Assembly: GCA_963758635.1 (NCBI GenBank)
Contig: CAVWWD010000007.1
Coordinates: forward strand, 1-64,000
Direction of reading: 5' to 3'
Source of the DNA: an uncultured Candidatus Rokubacteria bacterium
Lineage (GTDB): Bacteria; Methylomirabilota; Methylomirabilia; Rokubacteriales; CSP1-6
DNA: 64,000 nt
Each line of letters opens with the position of its first letter. The first letter of the stretch is position 1. The notes under the pieces were generated by a model. That model was not told the origin of the DNA. It saw only the letters and a program-made list of their open reading frames with translations, and ran no database searches. A program made the position numbers and the translations under genes. Shown here one piece after another: positions 39,147 to 47,110 of the stretch.

Positions 39147-39866
39147 TTATCCGCCCAGGTAGTGCTGGCGCACGTCCGGGTCGTCGAGCAGCTCCTGCCC
39201 GGTGCCCTCGAAGCGGTTCCGTCCCAGCTCGAGGACGAAGCCGCGGTGGGACACGGAGAGCGCCTTCTTCGCGTTCTGCTCGACCATCAGGATGGTGGTG
39301 CCCTCGCGATTGATCTCGAGGATGGTGTCGAACACCGCCTCGACCATGCGCGGGTCGAGCCCGAGGGACGGCTCGTCCACGAGGAGCAGCCGGGGCCGCA
39401 GCAGCAGCGCGATCGCCATCTCGAGGATCTGCTGCTGTCCGCCCGAGAGCGTGCCCGCGGCGTCGGCGCGCTTGTCGGCCAGGAGCGGGAACCGGCGAAA
39501 CAGCGCCTCGATGTCCGCGCGCACGCCGGCGTCGCGGCGGAGGTAGGCGCCCATCTCCAGGTTCTCCTCCACGCTCATCGCCGGGAAGTTGCAACGGCCC
39601 TGCGGCACGTAGCCGATGCCCCGGCGGAGCACGTCCAGGGAGGACCGGCCGCCGATCTCCTCGCCGCCCAGCCGGATCCGGCCCGCGCGCGGCCGCACCA
39701 TGCCGAAGACGGTGCGGAGCAGGGTGGACTTGCCGGCGCCGTTGGCGCCGATGATCGACACGATGTGCCCGGCCTCCACGGATAGCGACACGCCGCGGAG
39801 GACCTCGACTTCCTCGTAGCCGGCGGTCACCTCGTCCAGGCGGAGCAGCGGCTCGTCAGCGGCCAA
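39147..39866 (-). CDS. ABC ATP-binding protein (LivF-like)
   Basis: GANGAGKST, LSGGQQQ, DEPSLGL, VEQN. Confidence 0.9.
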   Translation of the reverse strand: MAADEPLLRLDEVTAGYEEVEVLRGVSLSVEAGHIVSIIGANGAGKSTLLRTVFGMVRPRAGRIRLGGEEIGGRSSLDVLRRGIGYVPQGRCNFPAMSVEENLEMGAYLRRDAGVRADIEALFRRFPLLADKRADAAGTLSGGQQQILEMAIALLLRPRLLLVDEPSLGLDPRMVEAVFDTILEINREGTTILMVEQNAKKALSVSHRGFVLELGRNRFEGTGQELLDDPDVRQHYLGG

Positions 39867-40611
39867 AGTACGCCTCGATGACCCGGGGATCGCGCCGGAT
39901 GGCCTCGGGCGGCCCCTCGGCGAGCTTCTGCCCATGGTCGAGCACCACGACCCGTCGCGAGATGTCCATGACAACGTCCATGTTGTGCTCGACGAGGAGC
40001 ACGGTCTTGCCCTGGCGATTGAGCGCGAGGATGTGCTCCTTCATCTGGTTGATCATCGTCGGGTTGATGGCGGCGGCCGGCTCGTCGAGCAGCAGCATCT
40101 CCGGGTCGGGCATGAGCGTGGCCGCGAACGAGAGAAGCTTCCGCTGCCCGTACGAGAGGCGGCCCGCCGGCGTGTCGGCCCGCGCGCCCAGGCCCACGAG
40201 GTCCAGCAGCGTCCGCGCGCGCGCCACGGCCTCGCGCTCCAGCCCGCGGACGCGGCGGGTGCGGACGAGCCGGGCGAGCAGGCTCTCCTCCTGGTGCTGC
40301 TGGACGAACACGAGCAGGTTTTCCAGCACGCTGAGCCGCGCGAAGACGCTCACGTGCTGGAACGTGCGGCCAAGGCCGAGGCGCGCCACGCGGTGGGGTG
40401 GCGCCCCGGTCAGGTCCTGGCCGCGGAAGAGGACCCGTCCGCCGTCGGCGGGAAGATAGCCGGTCACGCAGTTGAAGATCGTCGTCTTGCCCGAGCCGTT
40501 CGGACCGATCAGGCTGACCAGCTCGCCGGCCTCGATGGTCAGGTCCACCGCGTCCACGGCGGTGACTCCCTGGAAGCGCTTGACCAGCCCGCGCACCTCG
40601 AGGAGCGGCAT
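39856..40611 (-). CDS. ABC ATP-binding protein (LivG-like)
   Basis: GPNGSGKTT, LSYGQRK, LLDEP, VEHNM. Confidence 0.9.
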   Translation of the reverse strand: MPLLEVRGLVKRFQGVTAVDAVDLTIEAGELVSLIGPNGSGKTTIFNCVTGYLPADGGRVLFRGQDLTGAPPHRVARLGLGRTFQHVSVFARLSVLENLLVFVQQHQEESLLARLVRTRRVRGLEREAVARARTLLDLVGLGARADTPAGRLSYGQRKLLSFAATLMPDPEMLLLDEPAAAINPTMINQMKEHILALNRQGKTVLLVEHNMDVVMDISRRVVVLDHGQKLAEGPPEAIRRDPRVIEAYFGR

Positions 40612-41558
40612 CAGGCGCGGGACGGGCGGCGGACGAGGCCCGCGAGGCCCTCGGGCGACCGGACGACGATCACGAGCAGCAGCGCGCCGTAGATCACCAG
40701 GCGCCACGTGGGCGCCAGGCGCAGGATCTCGGGGAGCGCGGTGAACAGCACGGCGCCCACCAGCACGCCCCGCAGGCTGCCCACCCCGCCGAGGAACACG
40801 ATCACGAGCAGGTTCACGGTGAGCGCGATCGTCATCTCCTCGGGGCAGAACACCGAGAGGTAGTGCGCGTAGAGCGCGCCCACGCCCCCGGCGATCGCGC
40901 CGCCCGTGACGAAGGCGAGCATCCGGTACCGGAGGGGATCGATGCCCGCGGCCCCGGCCAGCGGCTCGTTGTCGCGGACGGCGTGCATGGCGCGGCCGAT
41001 CCGGAACGTCGTCATGCGTCGATACAGCAGCACGACCACGGCCAGCGCGGCGAGGGCGAGCCAGTAGTAGGCGGGCAGCGTGGTGACGGCAAGCGTGCCG
41101 ACGCCGGGCATCGCGATCGCGGGCTTGGGGATGCCGGTGATGCAGAGCGGTCCCCGCGTCACCTCCACCCAGTTCGTCGCCACGATGGAGGCGACGAGCG
41201 CGAAGCCGAGCGTACCCACCGCGAACGCGTGCTCGGCGAGGCGGAAGAGCGGCACGCCGGCCAGCGCGGCGACGACGCCGGCAAGGACCACCGCGGCCGC
41301 GAGGTCGGCGAGGAACGGCCACTGCGCGCGCGTGGCGAGGATGGCCGCGGTGTAGGCGCCCACGCCGAAGAACGCGGGGTGGGCGAGGGAGAGGCTCCCC
41401 ACGTGGCCCACGACCAGGTCGTAGGACAGCGCGAGGGCGGCGAAGAGCGCGGTGAAGATGAGGACGTGCACGATGTAGCGCTCGCGCCCGGGGGCCAGCG
41501 CGGCGACCAGCCAGGGCACGCTGACGGCGAGGACGGCGAGCGCGGCGCGCGCGATCAC
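40611..41558 (-). CDS. Branched-chain ABC permease (LivM-like)
   Basis: SLAHPAFFGVGAY, AVRDNE, LGGVGS. Confidence 0.88.
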   Translation of the reverse strand: MIARAALAVLAVSVPWLVAALAPGRERYIVHVLIFTALFAALALSYDLVVGHVGSLSLAHPAFFGVGAYTAAILATRAQWPFLADLAAAVVLAGVVAALAGVPLFRLAEHAFAVGTLGFALVASIVATNWVEVTRGPLCITGIPKPAIAMPGVGTLAVTTLPAYYWLALAALAVVVLLYRRMTTFRIGRAMHAVRDNEPLAGAAGIDPLRYRMLAFVTGGAIAGGVGALYAHYLSVFCPEEMTIALTVNLLVIVFLGGVGSLRGVLVGAVLFTALPEILRLAPTWRLVIYGALLLVIVVRSPEGLAGLVRRPSRA

Positions 41559-43256
41559 GAGCGCGTCTTGCCGGGACCCCACAACGCGCGGCCGGGCCTG
41601 GCGCCGGTGTGCTCGCCGTCCCGGAGGACCTGCACGCCGTTGACGAAGACGTGCCGCATGCCGACCGCGTACCGGTGCGGGTGCTCGTAGGTGGCGCGGT
41701 CGGCGATGGTCGCGGGGTCGAACGCCACCACGTCGGCAAACATGCCCTCGGCGAGCCGCCCGCGGCCATCCAGGCCGAGGTTGGCGGCGGGCAGGGCGGA
41801 GAGCCGGCGGACGGCCTCGGGCAGCGTGACGATCTTCTCGTCGCGCACGTAGGTGCCGAGGAGGCGGGCGAAGTTCCCGTAGGCGCGGGGATGGGTCGAG
41901 GAGGCGAGGAAGACGCCCTCGGGCGCCATCGACGCGCCGTCGGACCCGAAGGACACCCACGGCAGCCGGAGGACCTTTCGCAGGCCTTCCTCGTTCATCG
42001 AGAAGAAGACGGCGCCGATCCGGGAGCGGTCCTCGAGCACGAGGTCGTAGCGTCGTGTCGACCTCGTCCTTCCCGCGCGCCCGCGCGACCTCCTCGAGGG
42101 TCTTGCCGATGAGGCCCCGCAACGCCTCGGTGCGGAAGCTGACGAAGAGCGTGCGGGACATGGGCCCGCGCGCGCGCATCTCGGCGGCGATCCGCGTCCG
42201 CGTCGCCGGGTCCCGCAGCCGGTCGTAGAGGGCGCTGGCGCCTCCGCCGTGGGCCCACGCCGGGATGGTCGCGCTCAGGCCCGTCGAGCTCGCGGTGTAG
42301 AGGTACATGTTCGCGGTGATCCGGAGGCCCTCCCGGCGCGCGCGCTCGACGGCGGCGATGGCCGCGTCGAGCTTGTCCCAGTTCTTCTGCCCCACCACCT
42401 TGAAGTGGTAGATCTCCGCGGGCAGGCCCGCCTCGCGGCTGATGCGGATCAGCTCCTCCACGCCCTCGAGCAGCTTGTCGCTCTCGCTGCGCATGTGGGA
42501 GATGTACGTGCCCTTGTAGCGGGCGGCGACCTTGCAGAGCTCGATCAGCTCCTCGGTGGTCGCGTAGGTGCCGGGCGCGTAGATCAGCGCGGTCCCGATG
42601 CCGAGCGCGCCCGCCTCCATCTCCCGGCGGACCAGCGTCGCGCATCTCGTCCATCTGGGCGGGCGTCGGCGTCACGTCGTCGAGGCCGAGGACGTGGCTG
42701 CGGATGGTGGCGGCGCCGATGAACGACGCGACGTTCGGCGACACGCCGCGCCGTCTCCAGGTGCCGCAGGTACTCGGCGAGCGTGGTCCAGGGGACCTCG
42801 TACTTGATGTCGGTCTGGCTCGCGATCATGCGGCGCCGCATGGCGTCGTTGATCGGGCCCATCGACGTGCCCTCGCCGAAGATCTCGGTCGTGACGCCCT
42901 GTCGGATGTCGCTCTGCGAGCGCCCGTCCTCGAGCAGCGTGACCGGCGCCCACGAGAGCATGTTGACGAAGCCGGGCGCCACGGCGAGGCCGTCGCGCGT
43001 CGACGACGGCGCGCGCGCCGCCCTCGATGCGGCCGACGGCGACGATGCGATCGCCGCGGATCCCCACGTCGGCCCGCCGGCCCGGACCCCCGCTGCCGTC
43101 GTACACGGTGCCGTCCTTGATCAGGACGTTGAGGAGCCCGGGGGCACGCGGGGGCGACGGCTCGATCCCGGCCGAGGGCGGATGCGCGCACGCGGCGAGG
43201 ACGAGCGCCAGCGCGGCGGCGCCCCCGCGGATCCACGCCCCCGTTCGTGGCCGCAT
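41555..43256 (-). CDS. N-acyl-D-amino-acid deacylase (D-aminoacylase) family lipoprotein (several frameshifts)
   Basis: DGSG, APGFVNMLSW, QGVTTE, SHMRSE, GSD, HPRAYG, VFVNG across frames; LAAC lipobox. Confidence 0.85.
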
Positions 43257-44128
43257 CAGATGCCGAGCCGCCGGCCGAACAGGCCCTGCGGGCGCCAGAG
43301 GAGGACCGCGATCATGATCAGGAACGCGAAGGCGTCCTTGTACGCGTAGGAGAGGTAGCTGCCGGCGAGCGCCTCGGTGAGGCCGATGAGGAAGCTGGCG
43401 GCGATCGCGCCGTTGACGTAGCCGAAGCCGCCCGCCACCACCGCGGCGAAGGCCTTCAGGGTGAGCGCGGTGCCCATGTCCGGGAAGATGTTGAAGAGCG
43501 GCGACACGAGGACGGCGGCGGCGGTGGCGAGCGCGGCGGAGACCGCGAAGGTGATCATGGCGATGCGCTGCACGTCGACGCCGACCACCGCGCAGGCCTC
43601 GCGGTTCTGCGACATCGCGCGCATGGCCCGGCCGGTGCGGGTGGTCCGGACGAAGCGCTGGAGGCCCCAGAAGATCGTGAGGCTCGCGGCCAGGACGAGG
43701 AGCCGCTGCCAGGCGAGGCGGAGGCCGCCCACGTCGAGCACGGCGGCGGAGAGCCGCGTCGGCACCTCCTTGGGCTGGGTGCCGAACACGATGATGGCGA
43801 GGTTGGTGAGCACGATCGAGGTCGCGAGCGTGGCGATGAGCTGCACGTGCCACGAGCGCGGCAGCACGACGCGGATGACGGTGCGCTGGTAGGCGATGCC
43901 GAACACCACCATGACGGCGGGGGCGAGCAGGCCGGCCACCGCGTAGGGGAGCGAGAGCTCGCGGTACGCGAACCAGAAGGCGTACGCGCCCAGCATGAAG
44001 AACTCGCCGTGGGCGAAGTTGATGAGCCGCGCGACGCCGAGCATGAGCGCGAGCCCCGCCGCCACCATCGCGTACATCGACCCCAGCGTGAGGCCGTGCA
44101 CCACCTGCTCGACGACGTCCAGGATCAT
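43256..44128 (-). CDS. Branched-chain ABC permease (LivH-like)
   Basis: GLALMLGVARLINFAHGE, GRAMRAMSQN, RPQGLFG. Confidence 0.9.
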   Translation of the reverse strand: MILDVVEQVVHGLTLGSMYAMVAAGLALMLGVARLINFAHGEFFMLGAYAFWFAYRELSLPYAVAGLLAPAVMVVFGIAYQRTVIRVVLPRSWHVQLIATLATSIVLTNLAIIVFGTQPKEVPTRLSAAVLDVGGLRLAWQRLLVLAASLTIFWGLQRFVRTTRTGRAMRAMSQNREACAVVGVDVQRIAMITFAVSAALATAAAVLVSPLFNIFPDMGTALTLKAFAAVVAGGFGYVNGAIAASFLIGLTEALAGSYLSYAYKDAFAFLIMIAVLLWRPQGLFGRRLGI

Positions 44129-44279
44129 CGGCGCGCGTGTCCGCTCTTCGACGCTCGCGGAGCCGCTGGTCGCCGGGCCCCGGGGCACACGTCGCCCCGG
44201 CACCCCCGTGGCGCGGTGAGGGCCGACAGAGAGCGGGCGGGGCGAGCGCGCCCCCCCATCCCCTGTACGCTTGAGCAGG

Positions 44280-44445
44280 TCATCGGCCATCTCGGCGAGA
44301 GTGCCACCCCCATCCGGTGCCGGCACGCATGCGAGCACCACTCAGGGACTGCGCCTCGCCCGGGATGTCGTGGTGGACGTCCCGTGGGGAGTCGCGCTTT
44401 GAGCGCCAGTACAGGGGTGATCGCATACCACGACACGGCCGAGGG
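44280..44445 (+). ncRNA. IS110 bridge RNA (target-binding and donor-binding loops)
   Basis: Two stem/internal-loop modules with guides CCCCCATCC and CTCAGGGA (target), CGTGGGGAGTC and GTACAGGGG (donor). Confidence 0.8.
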
Positions 44446-44470
44446 CGAATTGCGGGGAGAAAGGGGTGCG

Positions 44471-45706
44471 ATGCCGGACTACGAACTGTATGTCGGTGTG
44501 GATTGGGCGACGCAAACGCATCAGGTCTGCCACGTGAGCCCGACCGGACAGCGGCGGCGGGAGTACGCGGTGGCCCACTCCGGGGCTGGCCTGGCCGCGT
44601 TGGTGACGGCGTTGACCGAGGAGCACGTGGACCCGGCGCACATCGCGGTCGCCTTGGAGGTGCCCCGTGGCGCGATCGTGGACGCGCTGCTTGCCGCTGG
44701 GTGTCACGTCTACGCGGTCAATCCCAAACAGCTCGATCGCTTCCGCGATCGCCATAGCGTGGCCGGGGCCAAGGACGATCGGCGTGACGCCTTCGTCCTG
44801 GGCGATGCCGTGCGCACGGATCGGGCCGCCTTCCGGCGGGTCACGGCGGAGGATCCGCGGCTGCTCCAGTTGCGCGAGGTGTCGCGGCTGCACGCCGAGT
44901 TGGTCCAGGAGCGGCTGCAGCTCGGCAATCGCCTGCGTGAGCAGGTGCACCGCTACTTCCCCGCGCTGCTGGGCCTGTGCCCGGCGGCCGATGAACCGTG
45001 GCTGTGGAGCCTGCTCGAGACCTGGCCGACGCCCGCGCACGCGGCGCGCGCGGGCCGGCCGGCCCTGCGCCGGCTGCTGGCCCGCCATCGGATCCGCCGG
45101 CTGACGGCGGACGCCGTGCACAGCGCGTTGCAGGCGCCGCCGCTGCCGGTGGCGCCGGGGACCGTGGAAGCGGTCGTCGAGCATCTGGCGCTGCTGCTGC
45201 CCCGCCTCCGCTTGGCCCAGGCCCAGGAGCGGCACTGCGAGCAGCGGCTGGAGCAGTTGCTGGACGCGCTGACGGTGGCCGACCCCGCGCGGCCCGAGCG
45301 GCCAGAGCATCGTGACGTGACTATCCTCCGCTCCTTGCCCGGGGTCGGGAGAGTCGTCGCCGCCACGATGCTCGCCGAGGCGTGGACGCCGTTGGCGACC
45401 CGAGATTACCAGACGTTGCGCGCTCAGGCCGGCGTCGCGCCGGTCACCCGTCAGAGTGGGAAGAGTCGCGTGGTCACGCTCCGCCGAGGCTGCAACCACC
45501 GGCTGCGCAATGCGATGTTCCACTGGGCGCGCAACAGCATCCGGGACGATCCGCGCGCCCGGGCGCACTACGATCGCCTGCGTCTGCGTCATGGCCATGC
45601 GCGGGCGCTCCGCGGCGTCGCGGATCGTTTGCTCGGGGTGCTCATCGCCATGCTCACGAGCGGCACGCTCTACGATGCGACGCGCCGACAGAAAATTGCC
45701 GCTTGA
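44471..45706 (+). CDS. IS110 family transposase / bridge recombinase
   Basis: 411 aa; VGVDWA, ALE, KDDRRDA (DEDD RuvC-like), SLPGVG, RQSG catalytic Ser. Confidence 0.95.
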   Translation: MPDYELYVGVDWATQTHQVCHVSPTGQRRREYAVAHSGAGLAALVTALTEEHVDPAHIAVALEVPRGAIVDALLAAGCHVYAVNPKQLDRFRDRHSVAGAKDDRRDAFVLGDAVRTDRAAFRRVTAEDPRLLQLREVSRLHAELVQERLQLGNRLREQVHRYFPALLGLCPAADEPWLWSLLETWPTPAHAARAGRPALRRLLARHRIRRLTADAVHSALQAPPLPVAPGTVEAVVEHLALLLPRLRLAQAQERHCEQRLEQLLDALTVADPARPERPEHRDVTILRSLPGVGRVVAATMLAEAWTPLATRDYQTLRAQAGVAPVTRQSGKSRVVTLRRGCNHRLRNAMFHWARNSIRDDPRARAHYDRLRLRHGHARALRGVADRLLGVLIAMLTSGTLYDATRRQKIAA

Positions 45707-45946
45707 CAACACGTGGGGAGTCCCAGAGGGGGCTGCGCGGGGGCTGTCGACCCGTTGCGGTGCGCTCGCCCCGCCCGTCGCGCGAGGCGGTGCGCCACAA
45801 GGGGGTACCGGGACGACGTGTGCCCCGGGGCCCGGCGGCGCGTGGTCCGTGCGGGTCCGGAGCCAGTGCTGTCCGCGTTGCTGCGGGCCCCGTTCGTGTC
45901 GCTGCCTGGTCCGTATGGTCGGTGGTTGTCACCCCGTCTCGACGCG

Positions 45947-47110
45947 TCAGTTCAGCAGCGCGGGGCTGGTCGGGAGCTTCTCGAGGATGCGGAGCTTCCC
46001 GTCCTGCATCTCGAGGAGGATCATGTTGATCCACGCCTGGTGGTTGTCGTCGAACTTGATAGGCCCGAGCGGGGAGTCCTTGACGTTGACCTCCTTCAGG
46101 GCGGCGCGGATGGTGGCGCGGTCGGCCTTGCCCGTCTTCTTCAGCGCGATCTCGATGGCGGGGACCACCGCCCACTTGAGCGTGATGGCGGCGAGGCTCC
46201 CGTGGACGCGGGGCGGGATGTTGTGCTTCTCCTGCCACTTCTTGTCCCAGTCGGGATCGAGGCCGGCGACCCAGTAGGTCGCTTCCACCACGCCGTCGCC
46301 CACCTTCGGGTTGTCGCGCACCTGGTGGAGGAACTCGGCGGAGGCCAGGCTGCCGCGCGAGAACACCTTCTGGGTGAGGCCCAGCTCGCGGAACTGGCGC
46401 ATGAAGGGCGCGCCGTCGCCGGCGAGGATGACCGCCAGGATCGTCTCGGCGCCCCCGCGCTTGAGCCGGGTGAGCACGGGCCGGTAGTCGGCCTGGCCGG
46501 GGTCGAAGAACTCGGTGGAGTGCAGCTTGATCCCCGCCTTCTTGAACGCGGCGTCGTAGGCGTTGGCGGCGCCGCGGCCGAAGTCGTTGTTCATGGCCAG
46601 GATCGACGAGCTCTTCACGCCCTGCTTGGCCATGTAGCGGGCGAACGTGTAGGCCATGATCTCGTCGTCCAGCGCCACGCGGAACGTCCACTCGTTGCCG
46701 CCCTTGCCGGACAGCGCGCGGATCTGGGGATGCGAGCACGCCTCGATCACCATCGGCACGCCGATCTCCTTCACCACCGGCATGGCCCCGAGGCAGGCCC
46801 CGCTGTGGGTCTGGCCGATGATGACGTTGACCTTGTCCACGTCGGCGAGCTTCCGCACCGCGCTCACCGCCTCGCCGGGTGTGGCCTTGTTGTCGGCGAA
46901 GAAGGCCTCGATCTTCCGGCCCATGATCCCGCCCTTGGCGTTGATCTCGTCCACGGCGAGGGTGGCGCCCCACTTGACGCCCTCGCCGGTGATCGCGGCC
47001 GGCCCGCTCATGGCCGAGGCGAACCCGATCCGGATGGGGGGCGGCGTCTGAGCCTCCGCGGCGGGCGCGAGGGCGAGGAGGGCGGCGGTCAACAGCAATG
47101 CGATGCGCAT
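45947..47110 (-). CDS. Branched-chain amino acid ABC substrate-binding protein
   Basis: Signal peptide, AVDEINAKGGIMGRKIE, NDFG, GPIKFD. Confidence 0.92.
   Translation of the reverse strand: MRIALLLTAALLALAPAAEAQTPPPIRIGFASAMSGPAAITGEGVKWGATLAVDEINAKGGIMGRKIEAFFADNKATPGEAVSAVRKLADVDKVNVIIGQTHSGACLGAMPVVKEIGVPMVIEACSHPQIRALSGKGGNEWTFRVALDDEIMAYTFARYMAKQGVKSSSILAMNNDFGRGAANAYDAAFKKAGIKLHSTEFFDPGQADYRPVLTRLKRGGAETILAVILAGDGAPFMRQFRELGLTQKVFSRGSLASAEFLHQVRDNPKVGDGVVEATYWVAGLDPDWDKKWQEKHNIPPRVHGSLAAITLKWAVVPAIEIALKKTGKADRATIRAALKEVNVKDSPLGPIKFDDNHQAWINMILLEMQDGKLRILEKLPTSPALLN

Follow-up and report, generated by a model that had tools for sequence, protein, structure and literature searches.

Where does an IS110-group element begin when its left end lies in a run of C residues, which dinucleotide serves as its crossover core, and how do the guides of its bridge RNA read the site that it entered? 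These questions arise at a locus in the window, i.e., the whole 64,000-nucleotide stretch that we analysed, which opens contig C7 of a host genome of 6.2 Mb. Bridge recombinases are under development for programming large DNA rearrangements, and the published design rule calls for a 14-bp site in which every one of the four guides covers the core. In the accessible text of Durrant et al. (2024; PMC11208160), all four pairings contain the core, and in that of the seekRNA study (PMC11187229) the matches overlap in the target. We conclude that the locus carries an intact IS110-group element whose left end probably makes a bridge RNA aiming the recombinase at a palindromic host repeat; crossover would occur at a CC core, and the left target guide is predicted to pair exclusively with bases left of this core. 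Since the bridge mechanism itself is known, the finding refines rather than overturns it.

The element and its recombinase

The element is a 1,460-bp IS110-group insertion sequence with a predicted two-loop bridge RNA in its left end. Sequence and comparison with relatives together place it at positions 44264-45721, flanked by two CC cores. Its non-coding left end (44264..44470, + strand) is 207 nt long and is followed by a recombinase gene encoding 411 aa (44471..45706, + strand) and a right end that reaches 15 nt past the stop codon, which is the layout of the IS110 group and not of IS1111. The element lies between an ABC permease gene and, on the other strand, a periplasmic binding-protein gene. 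At 39856-43853 of the window, pieces of ABC ATPase, permease and amidohydrolase-like genes look, by eye, split or fused across frames, which suggests indel errors in the assembly.

The recombinase matched PF01548 and PF02371 (E 8e-33 and 3.8e-17), which places it in the IS110 family, and scored 174.6 bits against NF033542, the NCBIfam model for IS110 RNA-guided transposases (cut-off 140). Residues D11, E63, D103, D106 and S329 are intact, align with the catalytic residues of IS621 and were invariant in 12/12 aligned proteins; the sequence could be aligned to both IS621 and ISCro4. The predicted fold used here was made from an alignment (pLDDT 81.9), a single-sequence fold (pLDDT 43.6) having been set aside. 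Its best PDB match was IS621 (E 2e-11), relative to which it carries a helical insert of ~85 residues (~163-230). An atlas search with this insert returned only unnamed clusters and IS110 fragments. The nearest annotated relatives, at 44-49%, are unnamed IS110 transposases from Skermanella, Labrenzia and Sinorhizobium plasmids.

The original prediction looked to other genomic copies for a check on the element. Neither blastn nor tblastn found a second copy in its own genome, so the boundaries could not be read from paralogues. Relatives were collected from 101 related genomes (20 loci), GTDB contigs (25 loci) and metagenomes (at least 121 loci). The donor loop was held by 145 of the at least 166 loci collected, and the target loop was parseable in 92 of these 145 (53 unparsed), which gave 74 distinct guide-junction pairs.

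The target is a palindromic host repeat

The element interrupts a ~207-bp imperfect palindromic repeat of the host. The left part lies at 44171..44261 (+ strand) and ends in the left target (its last 9 nt, 44253-44261), and the right part lies at 45724..45837 (+ strand) and begins with the right target CAGAG (its first 5 nt). BLAST placed both flanks at five further positions in the genome and nhmmer at four, and the rejoined target site folds into a single long hairpin. With CC at either end and a rejoined site of the same length as the empty repeats, the insertion appears conservative, with no further duplication.

In the host's own genome, 4/4 empty copies with the central pattern have five C after AT, not three, and the fifth copy, which has diverged, carries four. 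In G000, the repeat (~200 bp) occurs in empty form at C4:137854-138591, C8:138642-138823, C9:221640-221826 and C8:1044542-1044717. The central motif was present in 31/159 family genomes, with up to 87 matches per genome and 257 matches in all 159; among the 150 matches listed, a hand count gave 140 of the long form, 7 one base shorter, 2 of the form assumed by the original prediction and 1 longer. When the three-C form was searched for in five rich genomes it gave 4 matches, all true repeat copies, versus 190 for the long pattern. The short form that would match the guide perfectly occurred once each in G101 and G047. Repeat copies whose shortening equals the guide offset exactly are rare (G202:C37, C38 and C110; G243:C81; G101 L173; G047 L196) and may be slippage variants or excision scars.

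Four DNA sequencing runs contained no circle junction of the element and no empty allele of its locus; they yielded one empty repeat, from another organism, with five C. Separately, a joint 44115-45947 in run X4, from a related organism, leaves the flanking ABC genes 158 letters apart, and both the element and most of the repeat seem to be missing. Viral contigs gave 0 matches to the circle-junction pattern and 0 to the donor-loop pattern.

Position of the core and of the element ends

IS110 boundaries inside homopolymer runs are not callable from a single copy, and the ends were read from the relatives. Among 32 distinct right ends, 31 place the core directly after ...GAGT; this core is CC, or CT in one natural variant (the clade member L033, in which both right guides carry AG). 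In 31 of the 32, the five bases past ...GAGT-CC best fitted the reverse complement of the right target guide at offset 0, i.e., the register of the right guide was constant. The right target guide is followed by GG and then by AC, the complement of the donor GT opposite which it stands, again in 31/32. Right donors and their guides vary together: TGTAT occurs with ATACA in L002 and L021, and TGTTC with GAACA in L214 and L216.

The original prediction had proposed a probable TC (or CC) core in place of CT. Its non-CT part stands, and the core is set as CC by comparing 145 related bridge RNAs; TC was rejected because 31/32 right ends place the core directly after GAGT. The donor thus reads GTGGGGAGT-CC-TGTAC and the target CCCCCATCC-CC-CAGAG. 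The left donor GTGGGGAGT is the right end of the element (45713..45721, + strand), and the right copy of the core follows at 45722..45723 (+ strand).

On the left, 7/74 junctions have just two C ahead of TGTAC, and the element is therefore taken to start at TGTAC, the first 5 nt of its left end and the right donor. The left copy of the core is accordingly placed at 44262..44263 (+ strand). In a close relative, L009, the sequence runs directly GGGGAGT-CC-TGTAC. An independent metagenome contig covers 44105-44442 without a gap, so the number of C residues at the left junction is not an assembly error.

The bridge RNA and its guides

The predicted bridge RNA (44278..44446, + strand; ends inferred) comprises a basal stem, a target-binding loop and a donor-binding loop. 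All eight stem arms named by the original prediction were present, and its four guides were in place: CCCCCATCC at 44307-44315, CTCAGGGA at 44341-44348, CGTGGGGAGTC at 44383-44393, which is identical to 45712-45722, and GTACAGGGG at 44409-44417, the reverse complement of 44260-44268. To these features our analysis adds the palindromic host repeat as target, the matching handshake dinucleotides and a left target guide without core overlap.

In the target loop, the left target guide (44307..44315, + strand) is 9 nt long, is identical to 44253-44261 and stops before the core. The right target guide CTCAG, which matches the right target in 4/5 positions, is followed by the core guide GG and the handshake AC (44341..44349 together, + strand), the latter complementary to the donor GT at 45720-45721. 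In the donor loop, the left donor guide (44383..44393, + strand) comprises 9 conserved nt (44384-44392) and, after them, the first core base; its 5' C matches in this element and in just 7/27 relatives, whereas the 9 nt matched in 27/27, a count anchored on that motif. The right donor guide GTACA, core guide GG and handshake GG follow (44409..44417, + strand), and this handshake is complementary to the target CC at 44260-44261. In both loops the right guide consists of 5 nt, the core and two handshake bases, and the left guide matches the 9 nt that precede the core; relative to their hairpins, the two left guides have the same register. The donor pairing is longer than in IS621, as originally proposed, with 9 nt left of the core versus 7. 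Across the 74 pairs, the first base of the donor-loop handshake was G opposite C in 67, a pattern-biased count, and pairing at the second base was inconsistent. In the right donor guide, conservation of the third G is also biased, because it forms part of the metagenome search pattern.

Chance was assessed on 20,000 random 199-nt windows of the same genome, scored for reaching the observed best match. This happened in 0.06% of windows for the left target guide (9/9), in none for the left donor guide (10/10), in 0.7% for the right donor guide plus core (7/7) and in 23% for the right target guide plus core (6/7), a match that is weak alone. None of the 20,000 windows reached all four matches jointly. 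The original reading of an intact IS110 bridge-RNA element with four readable guides was right.

Folding, which had been put forward as a check, gave a mixed outcome. The bridge RNA region was no more stable than its shuffles (z -0.63), but across 47 relatives compensatory changes occurred in 13/28 predicted pairs, all 13 in the target-loop hairpin, whose stems thus covary. The RNAalifold consensus of the donor loop pairs the invariant guides with each other and is uninformative there; the alignment of the donor-loop outer stem is too poor to reveal covariation. An Rfam search of the region found no match up to E 1.

The predicted register of the left target guide varies among relatives

This element departs from the IS621 geometry of a core in all four pairings, a 14-bp site and a CT core. 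Its left target guide ends before the core, and the span of 9+2+5 = 16 bp mirrors the donor loop. A left target guide without core overlap is the one unusual feature of the predicted pairing, and the site is likely to be one of 16 bases as opposed to the textbook 14.

Across the 74 guide-junction pairs, the offset of the left guide from the IS621 position was 0, 1 and 2 in 15, 21 and 7 pairs, respectively, and never 3 or 4; shuffled guide-junction pairings would yield 0.8, 0.9 and 0.2. The register of the remaining 31 pairs was not called, as runs of C blur the call. Offset 1 was also found in a complete plasmid of cultured Sinorhizobium meliloti. Given this plasmid and the gap-free independent contig, assembly error does not explain the offset.

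The extra C residues belong to the target. Empty repeats had the C count of the junction in 8/10 copies in G101, 17/21 in G047, 9/10 in G102 and 4/4 in the element's own genome, and from this equality it follows that the additional bases come from the target. Identical guides were found with different spacings, and near-identical elements had unlike junction C counts (L049/L137, L100/L113 and L085/L119), one pair having identical bridge RNAs.

On a tree of 29 proteins, i.e., the 43 called pairs minus those with too little protein, the register changed 8 times and was clustered but labile. The present element groups, with support 100/99, with two offset-2 elements (L115 and L050) and one offset-1 element. 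A fixed protein ruler as the source of the register was considered and rejected, given these 8 changes and the differing sister pair L085/L119. A linker one base shorter after the target-loop handshake went with offsets 1-2 in 11/11 cases, and a two-base linker with offsets 0, 1 and 2 in 15, 14 and 2; because kin are not independent, this association is only a lead.

An alternative keeps the same ends and the same five-C site and supposes a guide written in the ordinary IS621 register against the rare three-C repeat, this copy having entered by a match of the right half with the left guide unpaired. The left guide can indeed be divided into 7 nt plus CC, exactly the IS621 layout, and since it ends in CC this element taken alone fits the IS621 register as well. 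The three-C repeat exists, and half-site matches suffice for IS621, which recombines on a half match without the left guide according to the accessible part of a preprint (bioRxiv 10.64898/2026.08.31.748434). The alternative would nevertheless leave to coincidence a 9/9 match two bases over that only 0.06% of random windows attain, 28 offset cases where about 1 is expected, and three copies in one genome that are all one base off (two called, the third best there). Clade-mates also speak against it: a left guide ending in TC, as in L115, L152 and L032, cannot spell the CC core. We regard it as unlikely.

We consider it probable that, in a widespread clade of long-recombinase, CC-core IS110 elements, only the right guides determine the crossover, whereas the left target guide may shift by as many as 2 bases. 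Targets of 14, 15 and 16 bp would then be read, one guide could accept sites that differ by an inserted base, and the present element would be the fully shifted 16-bp form, in which the left guide gives the core no cover.

A predicted promoter formed on the circle and the choice of boundaries

The putative -35 hexamer TTGACA (45703..45708, + strand) overlaps the stop codon and was present in the 32 related right ends, for which this motif was the search anchor. The predicted -10 hexamer of the circle-formed promoter is TACGCT (44266..44271, + strand), with the consensus TAnnnT in relatives. A scan of the linear element found no promoter and no terminator; for the promoter, this is expected if it requires the circle. 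On the rejoined ends, the spacer between the hexamers is 17 bp with the junction placed as above, versus 19 bp with the junction originally predicted. In relatives, with their ends placed likewise, it is 17 bp in 24/30 and 16-18 bp in 30/30.

These spacers bear on the boundaries of the original prediction, in which the ends were merged at a shared TCCC. There the element inserted into a three-C repeat and starts with two extra C, the donor is GGGAGT-CC-CCTGTAC and the right donor guide is 9 nt long. Both target guides then overlap the core canonically with a 13/14 match, GTACAGGGG complements each of the four C, and the rarity of three-C repeats is not decisive, because the enzyme would prefer a guide-perfect rare variant. 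The right donor guide, however, must then shift by two instead, the 19-bp spacer falls outside the range of all 30 relatives, and the donor-loop handshake becomes TG opposite AT, with two mismatches. Sister elements that share the four G (L021) have a junction C count equal to that of their empty sites, and the two-C junctions (7/74) and L009 show CC directly before TGTAC. Merging at TCCC thus drops two C from the target, as 4/4 empty copies are two bases longer than the empty site so obtained; the corresponding circle junction assigns the element two C too many, and the site used for the 13/14 comparison probably never existed at this locus. These boundaries are very unlikely to be correct.

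Hardly credible is the idea that the offsets are homopolymer assembly errors and the core TC: the frameshifted look of neighbouring genes in the window hints at indels, but the independent contig is gap-free over the left junction, offsets occur in many unrelated assemblies and a complete plasmid, the right donor guide offers no A to pair with T at core position 1, and 31/32 right ends fix the core after GAGT.

Proposed mechanism and comparison with known systems

With a CC core and the element starting at TGTAC, a pathway can be proposed by analogy with IS621. Excision or copy-out would produce a circle, bringing TTGACA and TACGCT 17 bp apart and switching on the RNA. A recombinase tetramer would open donor and target, S329 would cut the top strands after the core, the handshake pairs (AC with donor GT, GG with target CC) would favour strand exchange, and the DEDD site would resolve the junction. 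In this clade the right guides would set the crossover, and the left target guide would anchor 0-2 bases further out across the C run. A shifted left guide would leave the bottom-strand core unpaired, and sites of 14-16 bp could be read, 16 in the case of this element.

The following comparisons draw on the accessible text of the papers cited. Like IS621 (PMC11208160; PMC11208158), the element combines a RuvC-like DEDD domain with a serine domain in the same fold, and has a predicted left-end bridge RNA with target and donor loops, a 2-bp core, handshake dinucleotides and, as predicted here, a promoter rebuilt on the circle. It also shares a palindromic intergenic repeat as target and a conserved donor loop beside a variable target loop; pairing of both handshakes as seen here is described for IS621 (Hiraizumi et al., 2024; PMC11208158). 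It differs from IS621 in its ~20% identity, its length (411 aa with the helical insert versus ~326 aa), its CC instead of CT core, its 9-nt instead of 7-nt left donor pairing, its contiguous 5-nt right guides and its left target guide without the core. ISCro4 / IS622 (bioRxiv 10.1101/2025.05.14.653916; PDB 9t56) uses 14-nt sites around CT and a short recombinase, and the accessible text describes no variable left-guide register. ISPpu10 of Pseudomonas putida (bioRxiv 10.64898/2026.03.19.712850) resembles the element in using multicopy intergenic hairpin repeats as sites and in having a rigid right and a tolerant left interface. Its core, however, is CT, its core-adjacent left-guide position admits no mismatch, and its tolerance is one of substitutions, not of register. 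By length class and upstream non-coding region, the element resembles the long-transposase subgroup that includes IS110 (395-455 aa; Siddiquee et al., 2024; PMC11187229), for which the accessible text contains no experimentally tested member of that size, the tested ISEc21 having 358 aa.

Among the papers listed by a full-text literature search, none describes a CC core or a left guide of variable register, though figures and bioRxiv supplements may hold one. The motifs of the clade were absent from the searchable supplements of PMC11208160, where Extended Data Fig. 10c, with six diverse bridge RNAs, may hold such a case. If the proposed reading is true, a CC-core clade would widen the range of targetable cores, and a 16-bp donor would offer longer and rarer sites. 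A guide that tolerates 1-2 extra bases would also create off-targets, i.e., insertions next to the core, that go unseen by mismatch-only predictions.

Variation among related elements

One subgroup (L051, L058, L093, L098, L103, L104, L151, L213 and L215) combines the right target guide GGGGG with left guides that end in runs of C, and its predicted targets are poly-C tracts; it includes plasmid copies in cultured Skermanella and Sinorhizobium fredii NGR234. At L128:144, the right end of one element is joined via six C to the left end of another, a tandem arrangement of a poly-C-targeting element. At L009:420 (G011), a right end is followed by CC, TGTAC and unrelated sequence, and looks like an insertion into a donor-like half site. 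Finally, independent reprogramming has led several related elements to the conserved centre of one and the same host repeat: L002 (G001:C370) and L021 (G102/G205), at 69-70% identity, sit in the same repeat family six bases upstream of the present element's site and carry different guides.
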